Below are positions 29,824 to 64,000 of a stretch of DNA of 64,000 bases, one piece after another. The position numbers and the translations under genes were made by a program. The DNA is taken from the NCBI GenBank assembly GCA_000934665.2, contig JYFJ02001900.1, forward strand, positions 1 through 64,000. The letters run 5' to 3'. The notes below the pieces were generated by a model that was not told where the DNA came from, did no database searches, and saw nothing but the letters and a program-made list of their open reading frames with translations. Source of the stretch: Catajapyx aquilonaris (taxonomy: Eukaryota). The first letter of the stretch is position 1. The number at the start of each line of letters is the position of its first letter.

Positions 29824-32800
29824 ATGGGGTTTGGATCCTTCGCGATTCTAGACTACGTGGTGTTCGTTGGAACAATTCTGCTTTCCCTGGCCATCGGGCT
29901 CTACTATGCCTTCGTGGTCAAGCAGAAGACCAACAAGGACTTCCTGGTTGGAGGCAGGCAGATGGGTGTGTTCCCCATCGCCATGTCTCTTCTAGCAACA
30001 TACATGTCAGCCGTACTCATATTGGGTAAGACCTCATTGCGATCTCACACAATGTTTGCTCCTGTACTCGATTCCACATGGCTTTCCAGCAAAATCACTT
30101 GTTTGTTGCAGTCATGGTAAAGAGCAAAAGTATAGCAGGGCATTTCCATGAATGACACTAATCCTGAATTTTATCGAAATATTTCATGTTTGCTGCCTGT
30201 AAGATCGGAGTGCTTTTCCCACACTCTTACGTATCACTCCGATTCACGCCTCTGTTCTCATGTCCTTCTCTCAGGTTATACGTCAGAGGTGTACAACTAC
30301 GGCACGTTACTCTCTGAAGTCATTATCAGCTTTACAGTCTGGGTTCCCTTAGGAAGCCTGGTTTTCCTGCCTACATTTTACAAGCTGAAGCTGACAAGCG
30401 TGTACGAGGTACGTAGTAGCATACGTTCATGCCGTGGGAAGAGGAAGTACTGAACGCTCTTATTTTTTCTTGCAGTATCTCGAGATCAGATTCAGATCCC
30501 CTTGGGTGAGATGGCTGGCGTCCCTCACCTTCATCGTCCAAATCATCCTGTACTTGGGCGTGGTGCTCTTCTCGCCGTCTCTAGCTCTGGACAGTGTCTT
30601 GGACTTCCCCATCTGGGCGTCCATCCTGTGCGTCGGAGGAAGCGCCACTATTTACACTTCCATGGTACTTTTGCTGGCTGGAGACAACACTATATGATTT
30701 CTGGATAGGATCAGTCAATCAAGACGCCTTGTTTGTTTCAGGGCGGTCTTCGAGCAGTGGTGTGGACTGATGTGTTCCAAGTCTTCATGTATCTGGCCGG
30801 GCTCGTTGCGGTGGTGATTAAAGGTAGCATGAACCTGGGGGGTCTGGACAAGGCCATCGAGATTGCCAACGACCATGGAAGAATCCAATTCTTCAAGTAA
30901 GTGGTGCCAGAAAAAGGGTTCGACCAATTGTATCCTGGCGTTATGCAACCATCAACACTTCGGAAAAGGTGGAGTGCTGATGGTTGCACAGCCACAGGAT
31001 AATTCAACACGTTACAGCAGATGCGACGTAACTTGAGATATTAGTTTTAGTTAGCCATTTTTTCGCACATATACGAGTATGCTCATTTTAAGCAGTTATT
31101 TTCAGAAACCAAAAAATTACATTCAGTAGAATAATTAGTTTCTTCCCATAGGGACAGCCAATTTCCATTTAATTACCGGCTACAAGTGAGACATGTTTAG
31201 ATAAGCACCCAAGTTCTGAAATATTTGCAACAATGCCATATTGAATAAGTCGGGAATCATCTTTGGCACAGCTTTAATCCGTTTGAGCCTCCTCTGCATC
31301 GTCTTGGTGCTCTTGCAGCGTCATGTCCGCTACGGATCGAGTGATCGCAATCTCCTGATCAAAGTCATCCTCTCTGATGGTATCATTTAGCATTTCCTGC
31401 TCTTTCGACACCTTTTCATCTACCTCTTTCCCAACAATGCTCGATATATCTTTGGACGACGACATTTCTCTCTCTTCGGCGTAATCAGTCACTTTTTCCA
31501 GATCGGCTGCCCAGCTGTCGTACTTGGGCAACTCGATTGTCTTTTCCTTCTGCGGCTCTCCATCCAGATCGTGATCCAGATGCTCGCTTTCGTCCGCCAT
31601 GCCGGATCTGTTGTCACAAAAAATAAGCATAATTCGTACAGTTTTGAAGTTATAGGAATGAGCATAAAAGATTGCAATAAACTGAGTTTAATGGTTGAAC
31701 CCAATTTAGTTCAGGCTAGAGCCTCCATCAAGGTTTTTTTTTAAATATGCCTATTCCACCTAATGTTAGCAGGCAATATTTTTGCTTGTCCTTAAATGTG
31801 ACTGTTAAGCAACTAGACACAGTTGAGAGCAAAAAAAAATCGCTAATTAATAATACGCATTGGAACACTTTGCATATTTAGTGAGTTCACAAATCGCTGA
31901 TTGCGCCTTCTCTTTCAGCTTCGACCCGAACCCGTTCAACAGACTGAACAGCCTGGCCATCTTCTTCGGGCAAGGTCTCCTCTGGTTGAGCTACTATGGC
32001 TGCCACCAGACTCAGGTCCAGCGTTACTGCAGCATGAGCTCGTTCAGAAACGCGTACAAGTGAGTGTTGTCTCCACCGTAATTTTTTGTTCCGAAATAAT
32101 CCCGTCACATGCCAACAGGGCTCTTCTTCTGAACGTCCCCCTCATTGCCTTCACCATGGGAATGGCAGTGCTGGCAGGCATCGTCATCTTCGCCAACTAC
32201 GCCACCTGCGACGTCGTCAGCATCGGGTTGATCAAGAGGGCTGACCAGATTGCGCCTTTCTTCGTCGTGGACAACCTCTCCGTCATTCCCGGAATGGTCG
32301 GCCTATTCGTCGCCTGCCTCTTCAGCGGAGCCCTCAGGTTAGTATCATTGCCTTAATTAACTATCAGCTATAGCAAATAACATGTGCATTTCCAGCACTG
32401 TCAGTTCTGGTGTCAACTCCTTGGCAGCAGTCACCTGGGAAGACTTTTTCCGCAAGATTGACTACTTCAAGAACATGGGCGAGGAAAGGCAGGCCAACAT
32501 AACCAAGCTCCTGGGTGAGTTTCACAAACTAATGATCTTGCAAGGGAGACATCCCATCTGTGTAATTAACACCTATATTACAGCCGTGGCATACGGGGCC
32601 ATATGCATATGCATGGCGTTCATGGCGCAGAATCTGGGAGGCATCCTATCGGCGGCCATAACCGTCAACGGATCGGTGGCAGGGCCTCTTCTCGGTGTCT
32701 TCACCCTGGGGTTCCTCCTGCCCTTCACCAACAAAGTGGTAAGCAGTTCTCAATAAAGAAGGAAGAGAACAATGAGTTAATTCCCCACCTTTCTGATCAG

Positions 32801-37900: not shown

Positions 37901-40900
37901 TGCCGGGATTTTTTTCCACGTGCATGGGAGCAAAATTTCACTGCAAGAAAGTACCAAGGGCACGTAATGTTTTCAGTAATTAATCACTAGAAATATGACC
38001 AGAGCATACATTAAATTAATGTGGAAGGAATCACTTCTAAAAATAGACTTTCGGTATTTCAATCTATCGGCCACAGCTGCACAGGACAATCACCTCGTAA
38101 GGCAGAGTTAATATTGACTTGCACAAAAGGAGCCGAATTGGAGCCATTGTGTGTTGGTTGGTCATTAAATTCCCCAGAGTTATGACCTCAGTGCAGCATT
38201 AGCATTAATGAAACCAGGGCGTGATCGTGGCTTAACTAATCGTTGCTAAATGGCAGCAAACAAGCTTGAAAGTACTGACAGTCTGGGTAGAAAGAGTGTT
38301 ACTCAAAATATTGGGTCACTGACATTTGGGTAATATTTGAGTCAACGTATTGCAAGTGATGCTAATCAACATCGGTTGGGTCACTATACACTACTTCACT
38401 CCCTCATTATTTGATCAAAAATTTTGCTGGTGGATGAACATTTCTGTCCTATGACCATAATTATTGTGGACCATAATTTGTTTTGACCAATCCAAATTTT
38501 GTGTTGACATTATCACATGAAATTAACAAGCTGTACAAAAGCAAAACAGGTAATAATATATCCACCCTGCATATCCATGAGATACCTATGTTCATTTACA
38601 TACACCTGATCACCACATGTTCTCATGAACTCTGACATCATCGCATGACATTGATATGGGTGCTGTGAATCATGGAGGGTGGAGTCCCTACACAAGCATT
38701 TAAAAAAAAGTCCATAAAGGATTGATGTACTAATTTGCAGAATATTATTAGACATGTGCAGTGTAGTGCATGTTGATCTTCAAGTATGACTTCTTCTGCA
38801 ACACTCCGCTGACATTATTTTCTCTTCCAGTACCTCACCTTGCGGTTCAGATCACGAGTCCTTACAATCATACAAACAGCAGTGTTCATATTAACATCGG
38901 TGTTGTACTTGGGAGTGGTCCTGTTTGCTCCTTCCTTGGCTCTGAGTGCAGTGGTCGACATACCAGTCAGTGTGGCCATCGTGCTGATTGGAGGCTGCGT
39001 CACCCTCTACAGCACTGTGGTAGATTTTTCATCCTTCTCTTTGCATGCAAGTAATATACTTAAATATATGTAATAATGCATTTTTGTTTGCAGGGAGGAT
39101 TCCAGGCAGTGATGTGGATCGAGTCATTCCAGGCTATGGTGATGCTCGTAGGCCTAGTTGCCACCGTCATTAAAGGCACCATTGATCTTGGGGGACTCAA
39201 CCATGCACTCGAAATTGCTGACCAATATGGACACCACCACTTTCTAGAGTGAGTCTTAATAATTGGCCTGTGAATCTTTCCAGAGCAGATACTTTGATTG
39301 CCTTTGACCATTACAGTGACTTTTGCCTTGCCACATGATCCTCAGTAGAATACAAACAATTCCAGCTTCTCACCATCACCATTCCTACGTCATACGAGCC
39401 TCAGCATCTTCTTCGGACAGGGACTCTACTGGGGAGGTGTCTACGCATCCAATGTGGGTCACGTCAATCGCTTCCGCAGCATCAGATCATACGGAGAGAT
39501 GAAGATGACGGTCCTTGCCAGTGCTGTTGTCCTCTCCCTGGTCATCCTCCTAGCCTGCCTTTGTGGACTGGTCATCTTCGCCACCTACGCTGGATGTGAT
39601 CCACTTCTCCTGGGTCGCATTGCAAGGCCAGATCAGTGTCTTCCTTACTATGTGGAAGACCAACTCAGGGTCTTGCCAGGTCTAATGGGACTTTTCTTTG
39701 CCGCTCTATTCAGCGGTACACTAGGGTAAGAGCCCAGAACCTCTTTCCGCAGCAAACAACAAAATAACAAAACTTGCACATCAATTAGGGCCTGCTCAGG
39801 TGTCCTGAACGCAATCACTACCAGCATATGGGTTGACTTCCTGAAGCCTCTGCGGATGTTCCAAAATCTGAGTAACACAAAGGAGACGTATGCCATGAAA
39901 GCAGTAGGTGAGTCATACTCATTGAATGCTTTAAGCTCTTGTAACCATTTTTTCTTTCCCCGGCCACAGTTCTTCTGATGGGATGTGTCGCTGTGTCCTT
40001 TGCCATGGTGGCAGGATATCTTGGGAATGTCCTCAAAGCCTCGATGCTAGTGGTGGGAGCTCTGGCCATGCCAATGACAGCAACAATTGCCTTCGGTATC
40101 TTGATCCCATTCGGTAATAAGAAGGTCAGTACGCCATGAAAGTGCGTCATGCAGTGGTAAAACAACATCTGCTTTTCAATAAGACATTACATTGCATTTC
40201 TGCTACGTGTAGGCTTATCGATAAGCAAAATTTTTGTCAAGTGACGTATGTCCACATAACCTTGAATCTGAATATCATATAGATCCATTTTTAAAAATTC
40301 AACCTAACTGAAGTGAAACCTGCCTGTCATGGATGTAGCAAAAACCTGACTATTGCATAAAATAATTGAGCCTTTCTAGCAATGAGACAGGGTTTTCCTC
40401 TTAAAATGTGCAAGGGCAGTGTAGGGCTTTTTGCACAATGGCATCATCACTGATTACGACAATACACTGGCTGTGTGATAAATGAATAGGCTTGACATAA
40501 CATAACAATTCAGCATGTTTTGATCCGCGTTCTAAATTAACTTCAAGGTTATTGTTACTTCCCTGCAAATTACAGGGAAAGGATTGTTGCAATATAGCGG
40601 TGCCTGTTACAAGTGTTTGCATCATTGGTGATTAACACTTGCAAATTCTCTATGTCATTGAATGCGTAAAGCGCAGGTCCATGCCATATAAACACCGGCT
40701 CTTCCCTTCCAGCCATGAGAAAGCTGCTCATAGCAATACCATCTCAATACATGCACAGAAGTCTATTCCAGGGAGCCTTCAGCGGCTACTTTGCAAGTTT
40801 AGCCATACTGATCTGGCTGGCTGCAGGATCAGTGTTTACAGGCAGACCTTCTCCCTATCTGCCATCCAGCATCGATAGCTGCCCTGTCACTAATCAGACG

Positions 40901-41678
40901 ATAGAGGAGGCTTGGACTGATGAATGGGAACTTACCACACTTCTGCCACCGACAACTAATGCAACTGAAGGTCACATTCAAGATGCAGGAGATATGTAAG
41001 TTAAGAAATCTCTTCCAAAAATAATTACATGCCCTCCTTAAGAGCATGACTTGAAATCATCCAATGAGTCAAAATGCACCATCAAGTATGTGTCAACAGA
41101 AACTGTGATAATCATATACCTTATTGTCCACTGCGGCAGGAGCTGGTCTACAAAAATGTACTCATTAACATTCATCTTATACCCACTTCTGGCTTGGATG
41201 ATTACATTTGTTGTCGGCACCATTGTCAGCCTTATAACAGGTATGTTACCATAAATACTCAAAATACTTGCCTACGGGGCCTCTACCCACCCTGTGATTT
41301 TTGCCAGAGTTAACAGTAACACCCTGTAGAATCATGACCAGTTTAGAATCAGTTTTACTGACACAAATGTGAGCTAACTTATGAAACATGCAACATATGA
41401 AGTGTTGTACAGTTACAATATTTTTGGTATGTGGCACATTTAATGCATTGTTACAAACAATGGCCTGTAATGCAGGTGGAGAGAGCCGCAGCTTGCAGCA
41501 AATTGGTCATTTAATCCACCCAAGTGTGGTGCGATTCTGTCGGTGGCTCAAGTCGGAGGAGGTGCCGGATGTGGAGGACAGCGTGCAGCTGAAGCAATTC
41601 AAGGCATCACCCATTGAGAATGGTGGCCACCATGAAGATGAGCCAGAATCAGCCAAAATGCTGGCCAACGGGCACTGA
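34983..41678 (+). CDS. SLC5 symporter-like, paralog 6 (divergent, Na+-site residues substituted); 10 exons: 34983-35190, 36300-36433, 38831-39019, 39094-39248, 39366-39725, 39789-39907, 39970-40124, 40772-40995, 41140-41240, 41476-41678
   Basis: Open spliced frame with introns at paralogous positions. Altered motifs GGFQAVMWIESFQ, HVNRFRS, LFSGTLG|ACSGVLNAITTSIWVDF. TATATAAG at about 34654. Confidence 0.88.
35508..35973. mobile_element. Possible degenerate mariner-like MITE in intron 1 of paralog 6
   Basis: TA|CAGGGTG... left end and ...CACCGGG|TA right end; the TIR match is weak. Confidence 0.3.
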
Positions 41679-42602
41679 CACACATGAGCTGCAAACTTAC
41701 CCAGTGACATTCTTTAACAGTGACGACAGGCACCAGTTCTTAAAATCAGTGAATTTATTATTATTAAGCACTGCGCATTGCCACGAGTATTCAACATTTT
41801 AAATAATGAGACGTGCTCAGGCTGCAGTAATTGTGGGGGTTATTGTGCCGCAATGATTCACACACCAGCAAGTAGAACACTGTAAACCGTAAGAGCATTA
41901 CTGCGGTGAGTCTCCCATGGAACAGCAACTTTTTAAGAACAGCATTAAAAGTTGATGCTCCATGGAAGCGACTCACCCAGTTAAATATGTTGTGCGGTTT
42001 ACAGCGTAACCACAGCACACACTGTGCCGCATGCATGATTGCTGCAAGCCCAGTATTTTCATCCTCCGGCACACACTTTTGTACATAAAAGAGCAAATAT
42101 ATTTTTTTGGATTCTTACTTGTACGCTTGAAGCACGTGCTACCCCTACCATAATAATGGACATTCCAGCCATGTTATTGTTGGGTTAGTTTTTACCTACT
42201 TTTTTAACCCCCCAGCTTATTGCGGGACTTCCCCACCAGCACCTGCCCTTTCTTGTTGAATATGCCCCCCACACACACCTGGAATGTGTACAGGTCTCCT
42301 CTTCAGATGAAGCGTGGCTGATGGAAGGCGCTGGAACAATGGCTGCTTCTTCGTTACGCGCATCATTTGATGGTCTTCGCACATTTTGAATCTGGCCACT
42401 CTTCTCTTTGGGGGCAACTGGCCAATCAGTGCCAGGCGGATGGTGTGCTGGCAGGTGTAAACTGGTCTCCCAGAGGGCTTCTGATTGGTCCGGTTGTGGT
42501 GCGCACGTGCGGTGGCCTCCTCCAAACATGTCTGCTCCCATCGGGCACAGGTTGCCGGGTGGGTGGACAACAGGTAGAGCTAGAAAGAAGAAGGGCAGGA
42601 GG

Positions 42603-43240
42603 ATGAGCACCCTAAGGAGGAGAGACGAAGGCGGGCGACGCTTGGAGGGCGCCGGGTGGTCCGCAGCTGAGAGAAGGCGAAGGGTGAGGGAGAGCGGCCG
42701 GGGTGCGACTACAGACCTGGTATGTACCGTGTGTACCCAACAACCCCCTACCTAAGACATACCCGTCATTGCAGGTGGCCACCGCTGCTGGAGCCATGGC
42801 ATGCAGCAACAACAATGCAAGGCCCAATGTAAGTACGAGCAATTGACCGTATGAAGCCCCGTTACTCTCTTTGCCGGTTGCAGGAGTTGCGCTTCTTCAC
42901 CAACGAGCAGTTGCATGAGTACCTGGAAGAGAAGTCGCTGTTCCTGGCCTTCTACGCTTCCTTTGGGTTGTCAGAGTCTGTCACCAAGTTGGCGGCTGCG
43001 GCTCTCAACAAACGGAACTGGCGATACCACTGGCTGTATATGAAGTGGTTCCGCCGACTGGAGTATCCGACTGAGCTCAACGAGGAGTTTGAGATGGTCA
43101 GTTGCGTGTTGCTTGCTATTGGATTGTTGTTTGGAGATGTTTCATTGCAGGGGACGTACGTCTACTTCGACAGGAAGACGGAGACGTTGCATAAGAAGAT
43201 TGGATTCACGTTTGAATACAAGTATCTGGGTTATCAGTAA
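42603..43240 (+). CDS. CNOT3: Small NOT-box (NOT2/3/5 domain, CNOT3-like) protein; exons 42603(?)-42719, 42775-42828, 42884-43096, 43151-43240; start uncertain (ATG 42528, 42603 or 42796)
   Basis: The spliced peptide ...LFLAFYASFGLSESVTKLAAAALNKRNWRYHWLYMKWFRRLEYPTELNEEFEM|GTYVYFDRKTETLHKKIGFTFEYKYLGYQ* aligns with the CNOT3 C-terminus (LFFIFYY...[27 protein letters not shown]...EFEQGTYIYFD...KKEGFTFEYRYL). Three 54-55 nt phase-0 GT-AG introns; AATAAA at 43427. Confidence 0.85.
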
Positions 43241-46200
43241 CATATGGCACAGTCGTGTGTCGTGCGTAGTGTAGTACGGATGTGTTGCTCGCGTTTTAAA
43301 TCATGTGCTATCCATTGATTTGTGCAATCCCAGTCTTTTTATCCCATTTGGCGAGTATCAGAATTGCACCCAGCTCTTTTTATACCAGTGCTGAATTATC
43401 TCGGTTTTATTTATGAATCATGCGGAAATAAATGGTTTTAATCAATCAGGGTGTTAGTTTTGCATATGGTAGTCCTAACAAGAACTTAACACACACATGA
43501 GCATTTTATGTTCCTGCATTATAAACCAACATCTAGAAAACCTAGGAAAGGTCGTGTGAGACTGAACCAACCGAACAAGAGAGTATCATTCATTGCCACC
43601 ATATTTGCTAGTATAGAACTAACAAAACTCGGCCAACTCGTGACATTTTTAAGGTAAGATGTGTCATAACAATGAGGCTTTCAGTGACGTCATCCCATTA
43701 CAGCAGCGCTCAGCATGCTGTAGACCAAAAAAATTCACCTGTGCCGACATATAGGTGAGCAATAGGAAATAAAATGTTAAAGGCCACCCTATGAAACCAC
43801 CCAATTTTCATAGTGTGCAAACTTTATTGTGCAAATCAAGAAATTGCGAAGCAAGTGTCTTATATTGTCCATTTTTAGGAGATGAAGGTGTACCTTTCCA
43901 GTTGCAGTGGTGGTAATATTATTATTACAGCTTATGCTGTATGCCTTTCCTTAAAAACACATTTAAAAATTCATAGCAGAACCCGTTTCCCGCATGTCAG
44001 ACGGGGTGAACTTGGCCGCACGTATGTACCCACCCACGCTGGTCCTATCGCAGTGGTAAGGTAAAACCTGTCAAGTTCAACACCTTAATAAGTTGGCCAC
44101 CTTCCCATGTTGGTCATTAATCATTATATTTGGAAAGGTTGGAAAAATCTATCCCTTGCAATGTTGCTAAGTTTATTTGACACCTGTCTATCTTGGAAGT
44201 TGGACACCTGCAGTACAATTTTCATATTTTACTCTACATGTATTCCCATTTTTTTTTTCTAAAAACCTGAGCCATGCTGAGCTCTGCATACATAATTTGT
44301 GTCAAGCATGTCTTCATGTCTTCAAGTGACACTGTCAACTGTATGACAACAGCATATCCTGGCAATGGAGGATGAATATGGTGCCAATGCAGATGAGATC
44401 CTGAATCAGGTGTTGCAGGATACACAAAGTAAATCTTCAGTTCAGATAAATACACTATATAAAACCTGGTTAGGACGATAATAAACCACCTTCTCATCGG
44501 GATGCCCTTGAGTGCATTTAAAAAATTACAACTTTATACGTACTTTGGCATGCCTCTCTTTATTTTGCTGCCCAAAAGAAAAACCAAATTTCTCTGATTA
44601 AAGAGTCACTTGTTACTCATTTATAAACCAAAAAGTAGTCCCATTTCAGAAATTTCAGGTACATAGCTGTGCTGTAGTGTACCGAAAATAAGAGAACGTG
44701 CATTGAAAGTTGGACGATTACAGTACAGTACTTACTCGTGCATTACTGTGATGCACTATGAAATCCGAAAGATTGAAATCCTAAGATGTTGGACACCTCC
44801 CTATGTTGGACAGTTTCTTTGGAACTGTCAGTGTCCAACATAAGACAGGTTTTACTATATGCGTATGATGTTTCTTGGACATGAGGAGATGATATGACAT
44901 GAATCGTATCTACCCCTGTTATGATTTGGGACAATAACACAGATCATCATCGGGTCAGTGCTTCACTTCTTAGATTTTAAATATGTCTCAAAATGAGATC
45001 ATGTACCACTAGTCCAAAATCACTCACAATAAGTCAATTCGGTAATCCGGATATTAAGGATGAGCAAGTGAAGGTCAATTCCAGTGTGCGGATAGGCACA
45101 TATAGATGGAGAAGACCACACTCTACTTGGCGAAATCATCCATCCTGCTGGTGATAACCAAACTCACGCAGCAGAATGTGGTCAGATATATAAGGAGGGA
45201 AGTTAGAAAAGTCTCAAAATACTCCTTCGCACATTGTCACCCCAGCATCCTTTGGGGCCAGACAAGACCGTATCACTGGTGGATTCACTCCCCCTGAAGG
45301 AAACAGTTCAAATAACAATATATCATTCGTTAGCCAAAATAATGACAAAAAAACAATGTCCTATTAGGACTCAATAATTGCTGCCACAAATGCAAAACGG
45401 ATGAATACTCTGAATGTTTACAATATTAGGCACACTGAAACTCAACTGAACTCAATCATGTCATGAAAGTCATGATTTAATAATCAAATTATAAATATTC
45501 AGTTACAGTCATGTTTGCAATTATCGCAAGGTATGTAATGTCATTATCAGAATGTGCCAGTTCAGAGAATGGGGTCCTAGCCATGGCCTGGAATTTGGGT
45601 AATTATTTGTACACGAATACCTCAAACATACGTATCAGATAAATACGCATTCCACCACTTTTCGGCACCAAAATGTCATTACTCGATAAATTATCGGGGG
45701 TTTAAAAGTCACTCTCAAATTGGCGGGAAAAGCGGGGGCGTGGCCTCTGACCCAAGTGACGTCAGCAGGCCGTTGCCTGGCGCCCGTTCGATTCGGCTTC
45801 ACTTGAGGTCGTTCTCGATTCCGTTATGTTATAGGCAACAAACAGAGGAACAAAGCAACCGGGGTGCATTCCTGCCTCTGCATGTTTATTTTTTTGACCC
45901 GAGTGACGTCAGATGGCAATACGATACCGTATAATTATTATGATCTTAGATCGATCACAGCTCGAAAACTAATATTTGTTTCTTCAAACACAAAACACCA
46001 AAATTCATTTAAAAATCAGGGCGATTTTTTAAGATGGGCCTGAAAAATGTAGGCTGTAGGACCCTATTGTACTGTACAGTATATTCATCAAGTAATAATC
46101 CTTCACGTTTCAGCTGGGGCCCCTAATCAAGATTAGTGTAAACATGTAAATGTTGAAGAATAGGGGAAGCGGACAAGCTGCCCTGATGTAAAGAACTTTG

Positions 46201-47021
46201 CATTTCTCATCGGGCACAGCCCATTCAAGCTCCTCATCATCAGTCCTGTAGTATTGGTAAGACCTCCCTCCTGCAACTCTCATGTACTGTACGTACATAC
46301 AGTAGGTCGTTTTACGTCAGAGAAAGAAAGTGTGTATGAGAAGTACTCTCAATCTGGCTTGCTCATGTTGTATTCTGCAGCTCTCGAACCCACTCTGTCC
46401 AACACCCTTGACAAACAACATTTTTGGACTCCCTATAAGGATCCACGCTGACCCAAGAAAAGAAAAGTGCAAGTGTCTGATTTCACGCCAATCGTCCCCG
46501 AAGTCGCCCCCACTCTACGGTACGTCTGAAATAAAACACGTTTCAACAATTATTTTAACAAGAACAAACTTTTTTCTATATAGGCAAAGTCCGATGCCCA
46601 ACTGAATAAAAATAATTGAATATTGTACACCTCACCTGACAACGGTTTTACTAGGATAAAATAATACTAGACAATAAAATTACGTGTGCAAGAACAGCAT
46701 CAGCATTGTATTGTTCAGCAGTGTCACAATATTGCCTTAAAAGTCCAACGGGTTCCCGATAAGAACTCGGCGAAATATAAATCGGCGGATGACGGTTAGA
46801 CGACTATACCATTGGCCGGAAATTAAATTCGGCGAAGGCACTTCTGATGGCAACAAAAACATTTGCTGATAACTGTTATCGTGTTGCATCGTGTAGTCAG
46901 CCTCATTTCCCGCAGCCCAATGAGAAAAGGTCGACTCGAATCATGCTCGCGTTATCACATTTTATGAGATGGTACATTGCTCCCTGTAATGAAATCAATA
47001 ACCTCAATGACTAGAGCAATG

Positions 47022-47282: not shown

Positions 47283-47666
47283 AATGATGAAGCGAAGACC
47301 TCCGGTTTCATTTTGGTAGTCTGAAGAAAATTACCACTTTCCCCCGACTTACACCTCCTGACTTTGATGACGGTCATCATGTAAACATCCATTGCTTATC
47401 TCGGCGTAAAAATAAGGCTAACGCCCCAATCATATGACCCATGACACATCCAGCCAACCACGCCAATACTCGTGTGAGCAAGGGAAGTTCAAAGAGCATG
47501 AAATTTCCTAACCATAGCGCACGTGATCTATGTTCTTAAGGAGGCATCGCCCTCTGCCCAGAAAGGTTATATCTGCGGTCACCAATGTCACTATTTAAGT
47601 CGTACGCCCTTCAGGATTGAGGAGAAAGGAGTCAGTCTGATTGAGTCAAGTGCAGCATCCCCCGAG

Positions 47667-55232
<7,566 letters not shown>

Positions 55233-56638: not shown

Positions 56639-58281
56639 TAGGTGTTTGTGTTTATTATAAGGCGAATTAAATTAAATTTAAGGAGATACCTATACCGTAA
56701 AACGGGGTGAAGTTGGCCGCCCGGGTGAACTTGGCCACAATTCCAAAAATGTCTTCTATGAAATGAGGCTTTCAATGACGTCATTACATTACAGCAGCGC
56801 TTAGCATGCTGTCGACCAAAAAAATTCACCTGTGCCGACATAGGTGAGCAAGGAAATAAAATATGTTAAAAGACACCCCATGAAACCAACCACTTTTCAT
56901 AGTGTGCAAACTTTATTTTGCAAATGAAGAAATTGCGAAGCAAGCGTCTTGTCCATTTTTAAGAGATGAAGGTGAACCTTTCCAGTGGCTTTTTTTCTAA
57001 AAACGTGAGACGTGCTGAGCTCTGCATACATAATTTGGGAAGAATGTCTTCGTGTCTTCGAGTGACATTGTCAACTGTATGACAACAGCATCCTGACAAC
57101 GGAGGATGAATATGGCGGCAATGCAGATGAGATGATGAAGCAGGTGTTGCAGGATACACAAAGTAAATCTTCAGTTCAGATGAATACACTATATAAAATC
57201 TGGTTAGGACGATAACAAACCATCTTCTCATCAGGATGCCCTTTGAGTGCATTAAAAAAATTCCAGCTTATGCTTTGGCATCCCTCTCTTTATTTTGCTG
57301 CCCAAAATAAAACCCAAATTTCTCTGTTAGAGAGTCACTTGTTACACATTTATAAGCCAAAAAGTAGTCCTGTTTCAGAAATTTTATGTATATAGCTGTG
57401 CTGTACTATACTGAAAATAAGAGAATGTGCATTGAAAGTTGGACGATTATAGTACAGTACTTACTCGTGCATTCCTGTGATGCACTCCGAAACCCGAGAA
57501 ATTGAAATCCTAATATGTTGGACACCTCCCTATGTTGGACAATAATTTCTTTAGAACTGTCAGTGTCCAACATAGACAGGTTTTACTATATGTGTACGAT
57601 ATGCTTGTTGGACATGAGGAGATGATATGGTATGAATCGTACTACCCCTGTTATGATTTGGGACAAAAACACAGATCATCATCGGGTCAGGGTTTTCCGG
57701 TTTCATTTTGGTAGTCTGAAGAAAACTACCACTTTCCTCCGACTTACACCTCCTGACTTTGATGAAGGTCATCATGTTCACATCCATTGCTTATCTCGGC
57801 GTAAAAATAAAGCGAACGCTCTATGACCCATGATACATACATCCAGCCAACCACGCCCATATACTCTTGTGAGCAAGGGAAGTTCAAAGAGCATGAAATT
57901 TCCTAGCCAGAGCACACGTGATCGGCATTCTGCTTTAGATGAAGGGAAAAATGCCCGCCTTTTGTCCTTCTGCACACTGACAGAGAGTCAGGACATGAAT
58001 GTTGCACCCTCTCAGGAAATCATTCTCTGGTGACATGGAGTTACAACTGGAATTATTACAATTCGAGCTCATTATTTTTCTCTCTCTTCCTTCCTTGTAA
58101 TATTCTGAGAAAATTTGTGGGGCGGGATCAAGCCACGAACATCTCTGTTGATAAGGAGGCCTCGCCCTCTGCCCATAAAGGTTATATCTGAGGTCACCAA
58201 TGTCACTATTTAAGCAGTACGCCCTTCAGGATTGAGGAGAAAGGAGTCAGTCTGATTAAGTCAAGTGCAGCATCCTCCGAG

Positions 58282-64000
<5,719 letters not shown>

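Follow-up and report, generated by a model that had tools for sequence, protein, structure and literature searches.

The closest described relatives of the gene reported here are the canonical CNOT3/Not3/Not5 subunits of the CCR4-NOT complex, in which an N-terminal domain links the deadenylase to the ribosome and a C-terminal NOT-box links the protein to the complex (PMC10157403, PMC4032980; these and the other papers cited below are drawn on through excerpts). Not5/CNOT3 uses its N-terminal domain to bind the E site of the ribosome (PMC10157403), and in the family fold of the NOT-box a bent beta-sheet comes after three N-terminal helices (PMC4032980). According to the same excerpts, CNOT2 and CNOT3 pair as a symmetric heterodimer in which the N-terminal helices of the two NOT-boxes make the contact, connector sequences extend this interface, the pair is fastened to CNOT1 by anchor peptides, and crystals of the CNOT3 NOT-box on its own contained a homodimer (PMC4032980); direct binding between NOT3-C and NOT2-C is described as well (PMC3594282). 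The 30 NOT2_3_5 proteins described in cotton span 563-1048 amino acids (PMC8198034). Here we describe a locus of Catajapyx aquilonaris, within positions 1 to 64,000 of contig JYFJ02001900.1 (hereafter the window, the whole 64-kb stretch of DNA that was analysed), which very probably holds a real stand-alone gene of four exons encoding a CNOT3-type NOT-box. Judged by its sequence, the product of this mini-gene would carry a complete NOT-box and lack the ribosome-binding N-terminal domain, the linker, the NOT1 anchor and the connector, so that we class the mini-gene as a member of the NOT-box family and not as a canonical CNOT3/Not3/Not5 subunit. Our explanation of the locus, to which as a whole we give a little under an even chance, is that of an expressed, protein-coding partial duplicate of CNOT3 whose product putatively pairs with CNOT2.

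The coding sequence of the mini-gene extends from 42528 to 43240 on the plus strand and comprises 182 codons after splicing, with one stop only, at its end; all six splice sites are canonical GT..AG. A preliminary description of this DNA, made from the letters alone, had claimed a compact spliced gene with phase-0 introns, a stop at 43240 and an AATAAA at 43427, and every one of these landmarks lies where it had been placed. The same holds for the SLC5 stop that it had put upstream at 41678, where the frame of the plus-strand neighbour, a sodium:solute symporter (SSF/SLC5) gene, indeed ends. The features of the locus are as follows.

42422..42488, plus strand: candidate promoter stretch, with CCAAT at 42422 and an inverted CCAAT (ATTGG) at 42484, from a motif scan
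42506..42719, plus strand: exon 1; the 5' untranslated region (UTR) begins at or before 42506 and the coding part is 42528-42719
42528, plus strand: ATG start, from the sequence
42720..42774, plus strand: intron 1, 55 nucleotides, GTATGT..TGCAG, phase 0
42775..42828, plus strand: exon 2, 18 codons, without CNOT3 similarity; has an in-frame ATG
42829..42883, plus strand: intron 2, 55 nucleotides, GTAAGT..TGCAG, phase 0
42884..43096, plus strand: exon 3, 71 codons; NOT-box helices and first strands
43097..43150, plus strand: intron 3, 54 nucleotides, GTCAGT..TGCAG, phase 0; in frame and stop-free
43151..43240, plus strand: coding part of exon 4, 29 codons and TAA; final two NOT-box strands
43238-43240, plus strand: stop TAA, from the sequence
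43241..43450, plus strand: 3' UTR, with AATAAA at 43427-43432; a contig of sequencing run X5 reaches 43424

The mini-gene frame is the sole plus-strand frame open throughout exon 1, and the AATAAA at 43427 is the sole AATAAA or ATTAAA that the motif scan found in 43241-43700. The scan found no TATA box in 42301-42530; the CCAAT boxes stand directly 5' of the first covered base and may form the promoter of the mini-gene. On the minus strand, a 188-codon open reading frame without a Pfam family (42185-42751) lies opposite exon 1 and the candidate promoter, and probably owes its existence to the richness of this stretch in G+C.

None of the runs listed is recorded as RNA; evidence for a spliced transcript comes from run X5, whose type is unrecorded and which belongs to another study than the four DNA runs. 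We treat X5 as transcript-derived because its contig on the neighbouring SLC5 gene skips the GT..AG introns 40995>41140 and 41237>41473, which DNA run X1 does not, and because its contigs total 32 million letters, as against about 255 million in the DNA runs. A single X5 contig of 558 nucleotides, with a depth of 7.7 and no letters other than those of the assembly, comprises the tail of exon 1, exons 2 to 4 and the 3' UTR, in pieces that fall at 42703-42718, on exon 2, at 42884-43095 and at 43150-43424; the 16-nucleotide exon 1 tail (42703-42718) occurs once in the window. All three predicted junctions are joined in this one contig with the introns removed, in the way that the preliminary description had foreseen, and the joint 42828>42884 (GT..AG) is absent from DNA run X1. 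A second X5 contig (42506-42744, depth 3.4, four other letters) begins 22 nucleotides 5' of the ATG, at 42506, without a loose end, and reads unspliced into intron 1; the three differences listed for it (42676, 42712 and 42713) fall at second or third codon positions of exon 1. This contig may represent pre-mRNA or a retained intron of the other allele, a near-identical second copy, or a low-depth error. X5 has zero depth over 42212-42445, and its SLC5 contig stops at 42070; the SLC5 gene and the mini-gene therefore have separate transcripts in these data. In DNA run X1, the depth over 41987-43741 is that of single-copy DNA (33), and a DNA contig spans the same positions without differences, though it possibly derives from the assembly's own sample.

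The product is predicted to have 182 amino acids and an isoelectric point (pI) of ~10. Exons 3-4 match PF04153 (NOT2_3_5_C) at E 6.5e-13 and 49.3 bits, against a gathering cut-off of 27, over profile positions 35-126 of 126, of which exon 4 supplies 102-126; exon 3 by itself matches at E 8e-09. No other domain was recognised, Pfam giving no match on exon 1 better than E 0.46, and this agrees with the earlier claim that a diverged CNOT3-type NOT-box is the sole recognisable domain. The ESM Atlas likewise returned only PF04153 clusters for the NOT-box part (0.89) and no family for exon 1 (best score 0.76). Among sequences of solved structures, 4c0g_A, the NOT-box of human CNOT3, ranks first (E 4.4e-13, residues 10-96 of 102). 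CNOT3 chains match at E 4.4e-13 to 2.4e-12, as compared with 0.54-0.93 for human CNOT2 chains and 0.0071 for yeast Not2, and on this measure the NOT-box is of the CNOT3 type and not of the CNOT2 type. The longer CNOT3 constructs 5fu6_C and 4c0d_C align only from residues 62 and 75, respectively, their first 61-74 residues remaining unmatched, so that the NOT1-anchor and connector portions of these constructs find no equivalent in the mini-gene.

An AlphaFold2 (AF2) model was obtained with the read-through frame, in which intron 3 is in frame and open, and an alignment of 42 canonical CNOT3 matches. Outside the intron-coded insert, block means of the predicted local distance difference test (pLDDT) are 84-96 across the domain, which is modelled as helices followed by four strands, and Foldseek aligns the model with 4c0g_A at E 5.7e-09, with a target-normalised template-modelling (TM) score of 0.90 and a root-mean-square deviation of 2.0 Å. 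The model thus predicts the NOT-box family fold for the product of the mini-gene. A two-copy complex prediction on read-through NOT-box residues 18-135 scored 0.01, against a mark of 0.32, and gives no verdict. The N-terminal 82 amino acids, encoded by exons 1 and 2, have a pI of 12 and contain 20 Arg plus Lys, 12 Gly and 12 Ala; this basic region is probably disordered and may be a nuclear-import or RNA-binding tail. The Arg-rich N-terminus claimed earlier is borne out by exon 1, whose 64 codons are Arg/Gly/Ala-rich and belong to no known family.

The remaining parts of CNOT3 were sought around the gene. Two full-length CNOT3 proteins (870 and 848 amino acids) used as tblastn queries against the window gave only 42989-43228 at E<1, and the Not3 N-terminal domain has no Pfam match in exons 1-2 and no tblastn match in the window. 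An upstream profile, built from 53 canonical matches and made of the 110 residues before the box plus the first 25 box residues, aligned with the spliced protein and the six frames of 41700-42960 through the first box helix only. Residue 84, encoded by the second codon of exon 3, is the first with CNOT3 homology. The Not3 N-terminal domain, the NOT1 anchor and the connector accordingly left no trace in the protein, in the frames of 41700-42960 or in the 64-kb tblastn search.

We consider it likely that the mini-gene arose by partial duplication of CNOT3. A HMMER search over 1.84 billion protein representatives returned 387 matches at E<=0.001 (best E 2.5e-10), and among the matches listed the matched stretches are 33-58% identical to the mini-gene query. 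Many of these matches are gene calls from eukaryotic contigs in which the reading frame continues into an intron. At the codon boundary of intron 3, which is readable in 135 of the 150 matches listed, 73 have Gly, the spliced continuation, 61 have Val (GTN), the first intron codon, and 1 has another insert; the query itself carried the Val run-on, which may have favoured Val run-on matches in the ranking. A phase-0 intron at this boundary is, on these counts, common in canonical CNOT3 genes. Intron 3 of the mini-gene stands at the parental position, which points to duplication at the DNA level and not to retroposition. A processed (retroposed) CNOT3 copy was considered as a candidate and ruled out by this intron at the parental site together with the three spliced introns. 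Two rarer states, the Leu in 'RLE' and a Met before intron 3, are common to the mini-gene and 5 of the 150 matches listed, and may hint at the parent CNOT3 subtype. Exons 1-2 were probably recruited locally, and no flanking direct or inverted repeats indicating transposon capture were found in 40500-46500. The short library matches that we inspected retain a proline-rich, connector-like stretch 5' of the box, and seem to be pieces of longer genes. In a protein collection, the read-through frame (length range 74-237 amino acids) and exon 3 (length range 126-2000 amino acids) had no match at E<=0.001; a neighbouring SLC5 exon used as a control found a best match of 48% identity there, and therefore the organism's own proteins are absent from that collection and its blanks say nothing on annotation or uniqueness.

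The box has diverged strongly and unevenly. For comparison we used 69 canonical boxes, that is, 72 single full-length-domain matches minus P0002 (insert) and P0010 and P0085 (irregular). Identity between these and the spliced box ranges over 36-46%, whereas the canonical boxes have a median identity of 63% among themselves. Of the 35 columns at least 90% conserved in the canonical boxes, 26 are kept by the mini-gene, compared with 17 of the 63 other columns (Fisher p 7e-06); against each canonical box singly, identity is 63-74% in the conserved columns and 16-30% elsewhere. The G+C content at third codon positions (GC3) is 0.72, as against 0.48-0.49 at positions 1 and 2, with GC3 of neighbouring coding exons ranging over 0.43-0.77. 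In a crude neutral simulation (uniform random substitutions, no insertions or deletions, starting from the present exons 3-4, n=5000), drift to ~42% amino-acid identity left 1.6% of the 5000 frames of 100 codons free of stops. The retention of conserved columns, the GC3 bias and the rarity of open frames under simulated neutrality together argue that the frame has probably been kept by selection through most of its history.

In the explanation that we favour, a canonical animal CNOT3 gene would have had its two final coding exons copied as DNA beside the SLC5 array, and the copy would have gained a promoter of its own together with two new exons at its 5' end. The mini-protein would dimerise with the CNOT2 NOT-box by way of the N-terminal helices of its own NOT-box, in competition with full-length CNOT3. 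Two outcomes can be envisaged: CNOT2 could be sequestered (titrated) by the mini-protein, or the mini-protein/CNOT2 pair could still sit on CNOT1, because CNOT2 has its own anchor and connector, and there form a NOT module without the ribosome E-site sensor. That the mini-protein acts in this manner, by NOT-box pairing inside CCR4-NOT as a competitor or an alternative subunit, is a proposal that we make tentatively and hold to be somewhat short of probable. Unlikely, in our judgement, is the more far-reaching version in which the mini-protein is a microProtein-type regulator that replaces CNOT3 beside CNOT2 on CNOT1, leaves the complex without its E-site sensor and makes mRNA decay independent of codon optimality wherever the gene is expressed; the fast evolution of the mini-protein would then reflect selection on a regulatory interface.

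Several observations weigh against this explanation. The connector, which widens the heterodimer interface in canonical proteins, is absent here, and 9 of the 35 most conserved box positions are changed, including the hairpin Trp after 'FDY' and the C-terminal acidic 'ED', so that the partner surfaces of the diverged box may be altered. A quick maximum-likelihood tree, built from 67 distinct rows and with groups defined by motifs alone, gives the mini-gene the longest branch, with 5.57 changes per column where the median is 0.12, and no settled place. None of the matches listed, from the 1.84 billion representatives searched, is closer to the mini-gene than canonical CNOT3-type proteins. The AF2 model leans to the family fold, given its canonical alignment and read-through frame, and the transcript support consists of one low-depth contig from a single run of unrecorded kind, with assembled contigs in place of reads. 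In Drosophila, the excerpts of PMC3594282 describe the NOT2 NOT-box alone as insufficient for NOT1 and as showing residual NOT3 binding only, the residues just 5' of the box being required as well (PMC3594282). A simple decoy is weakened by this poor binding of partners by a bare NOT-box.

The same data can be read in three other ways. The one we take most seriously, though we rate it as somewhat unlikely, is a functional gene outside CCR4-NOT, in which the Sm-like NOT-box has become a homodimerisation or RNA-binding module and works with the Arg-rich tail, for example in a nuclear or RNA-associated role. The extreme divergence with retention of the fold core would fit such a neofunctionalised domain, as would the pI of 12 and the 20 Arg plus Lys of the N-terminal 82 amino acids, within which a short basic cluster presumably resembles a classical nuclear localisation signal. 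The loss of the NOT1 anchor and connector points the same way, and so does the title of Bhaskar et al. 2013, which reportedly names RNA-binding properties of the yeast Not1-Not2-Not5 module. The isolated CNOT3 NOT-box, moreover, is able to homodimerise (PMC4032980). Against this, there is no positive evidence of another partner, and the retained residues are the conserved core of the family, which fits continued pairing with CNOT2 equally well. A transcribed relic, that is, a young partial duplicate that is spliced but yields no useful protein and is drifting, seems improbable to us. It would account for the very long branch, for the absence of a close relative from the protein collections, for the low depth of the contig (7.7, against 46 for the SLC5 contig, contig depth being a poor measure) and for the second, unspliced X5 contig with its 4 differences, three of them at second or third codon positions of exon 1. 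The missing relatives mean little, however, in collections without the organism's own proteins, as the 48% of the SLC5 control indicates. A drifting relic is further at odds with the substitutions, which avoid the conserved family columns (p 7e-06), with the codon-position GC bias and six canonical splice sites that have been retained, and with the mere 1.6% of simulated neutral 100-codon frames that stayed open, in a simulation without insertions or deletions.

The third possibility, that exons 3-4 form the 3' end of a long, canonical CNOT3 gene split by misassembly or by a very long intron, we regard as very improbable indeed. It draws on the C-terminal position of the NOT-box in all canonical proteins and on the canonical position of intron 3, but the 558-nucleotide X5 contig joins exon 3 to exons 2 and 1, neither of which is CNOT3-like, and the second X5 contig starts at 42506 without a loose end, with depth 0 just upstream. 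The gene upstream is, furthermore, an SLC5 gene on the same strand with its own spliced 3' end to 42070, tblastn with the two full-length CNOT3 proteins gave only 42989-43228 in 64 kb (E<1), and a canonical NOT-box would be better conserved (median 63%, against 36-46% here). The DNA contig over 41987-43741 shows no differences, though possibly because it is the assembly's own sample. These observations largely refute a misassembled or long CNOT3 and sustain the separate gene that had been claimed.

The surroundings of the mini-gene are populated by other families. About six sodium:solute symporter (SSF/SLC5) genes stand in tandem over 4800-41678 on the plus strand, with PF00474 in three of the exon frames tested; the closest named relatives of one SLC5 exon are springtail proteins at 44-48% identity, one of them a 'sodium-coupled monocarboxylate transporter 1', and the last copy is spliced in X5, with a 3' UTR to about 42070. 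Between SLC5 exons, an uninterrupted 137-codon frame on the minus strand (31277-31687) matches human HYPK (Huntingtin-interacting protein K; 6c95_D, E 1.1e-10) and has no Pfam match at E<=0.01; this HYPK-like frame could be either a retrocopy or a nested gene without introns. High-copy repeats at 41042-41509 and 43616-45000 flank the unique 41987-43741 block, with X1 depths of 600-2800 and 550-1060, against 33 in unique DNA, and with many rearranged joints. Minus-strand frames at 44234-44533 and 56959-57267 are similar and look like copies of one element. Further downstream, a plus-strand exon at 54756-55229 encodes a fibrinogen C-terminal domain (PF00147, E 6.4e-45), and plus-strand frames at 47502-48017 and 58192-58545 are near-duplicates with a common hydrophobic, signal-like start; together these suggest tandem fibrinogen-related genes. 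At the left edge of the window, an exon of an EF-hand calcium-binding protein lies at 645-1211 on the plus strand (PF00036, E 5.9e-07).

A genome-encoded protein made of the NOT-box without the other parts of CNOT3 is a candidate natural separation-of-function allele, which could reveal how the NOT module and codon-dependent mRNA decay behave when the box is present without the sensor. The case also illustrates gene birth by exon-level partial duplication with new 5' exons, and its weight is limited in that we have seen the mini-gene in one genome and infer its function. A full-text literature search found no description of a stand-alone NOT3-type NOT-box protein, and the literature searched gave no description of a microProtein-type action on the NOT module of CCR4-NOT. 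MicroProteins such as Id and LITTLE ZIPPER are small proteins in which the dimerisation domain is all that is left of a multi-domain parent; the mini-protein resembles them in that it could putatively titrate the partner of its parent.

With canonical CNOT3/Not3/Not5, the mini-gene shares the C-terminal NOT-box, in sequence and predicted fold, and a phase-0 intron at the same codon boundary. It differs in the length of its product (182 amino acids, compared with 848 and 870 in P0014 and P0002), in the absence of the N-terminal E-site domain, linker, NOT1 anchor and connector, and in a box that is 36-46% identical. The plan of the mini-protein, an unstructured N-terminal region followed by a C-terminal NOT-box, is rather that of CNOT2/Not2 as outlined in the excerpts of PMC3594282; unlike CNOT2, the mini-protein is of the CNOT3 type (E 4.4e-13, as against 0.5-0.9), has no NOT1 anchor and is much shorter. 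The yeast Not3/Not5 pair offers a precedent in which a NOT3-type gene was duplicated and its copies diverged unequally (PMC4032980), but both yeast copies are full length and have the N-terminal domain in common, whereas here the box alone was copied. Nearest in extent is the human CNOT3 fragment 4C0G, of which residues 10-96 of 102 are matched; that fragment is a laboratory construct, whereas the mini-gene encodes a natural fragment, supplied by a genome and fitted with a basic N-terminal tail.

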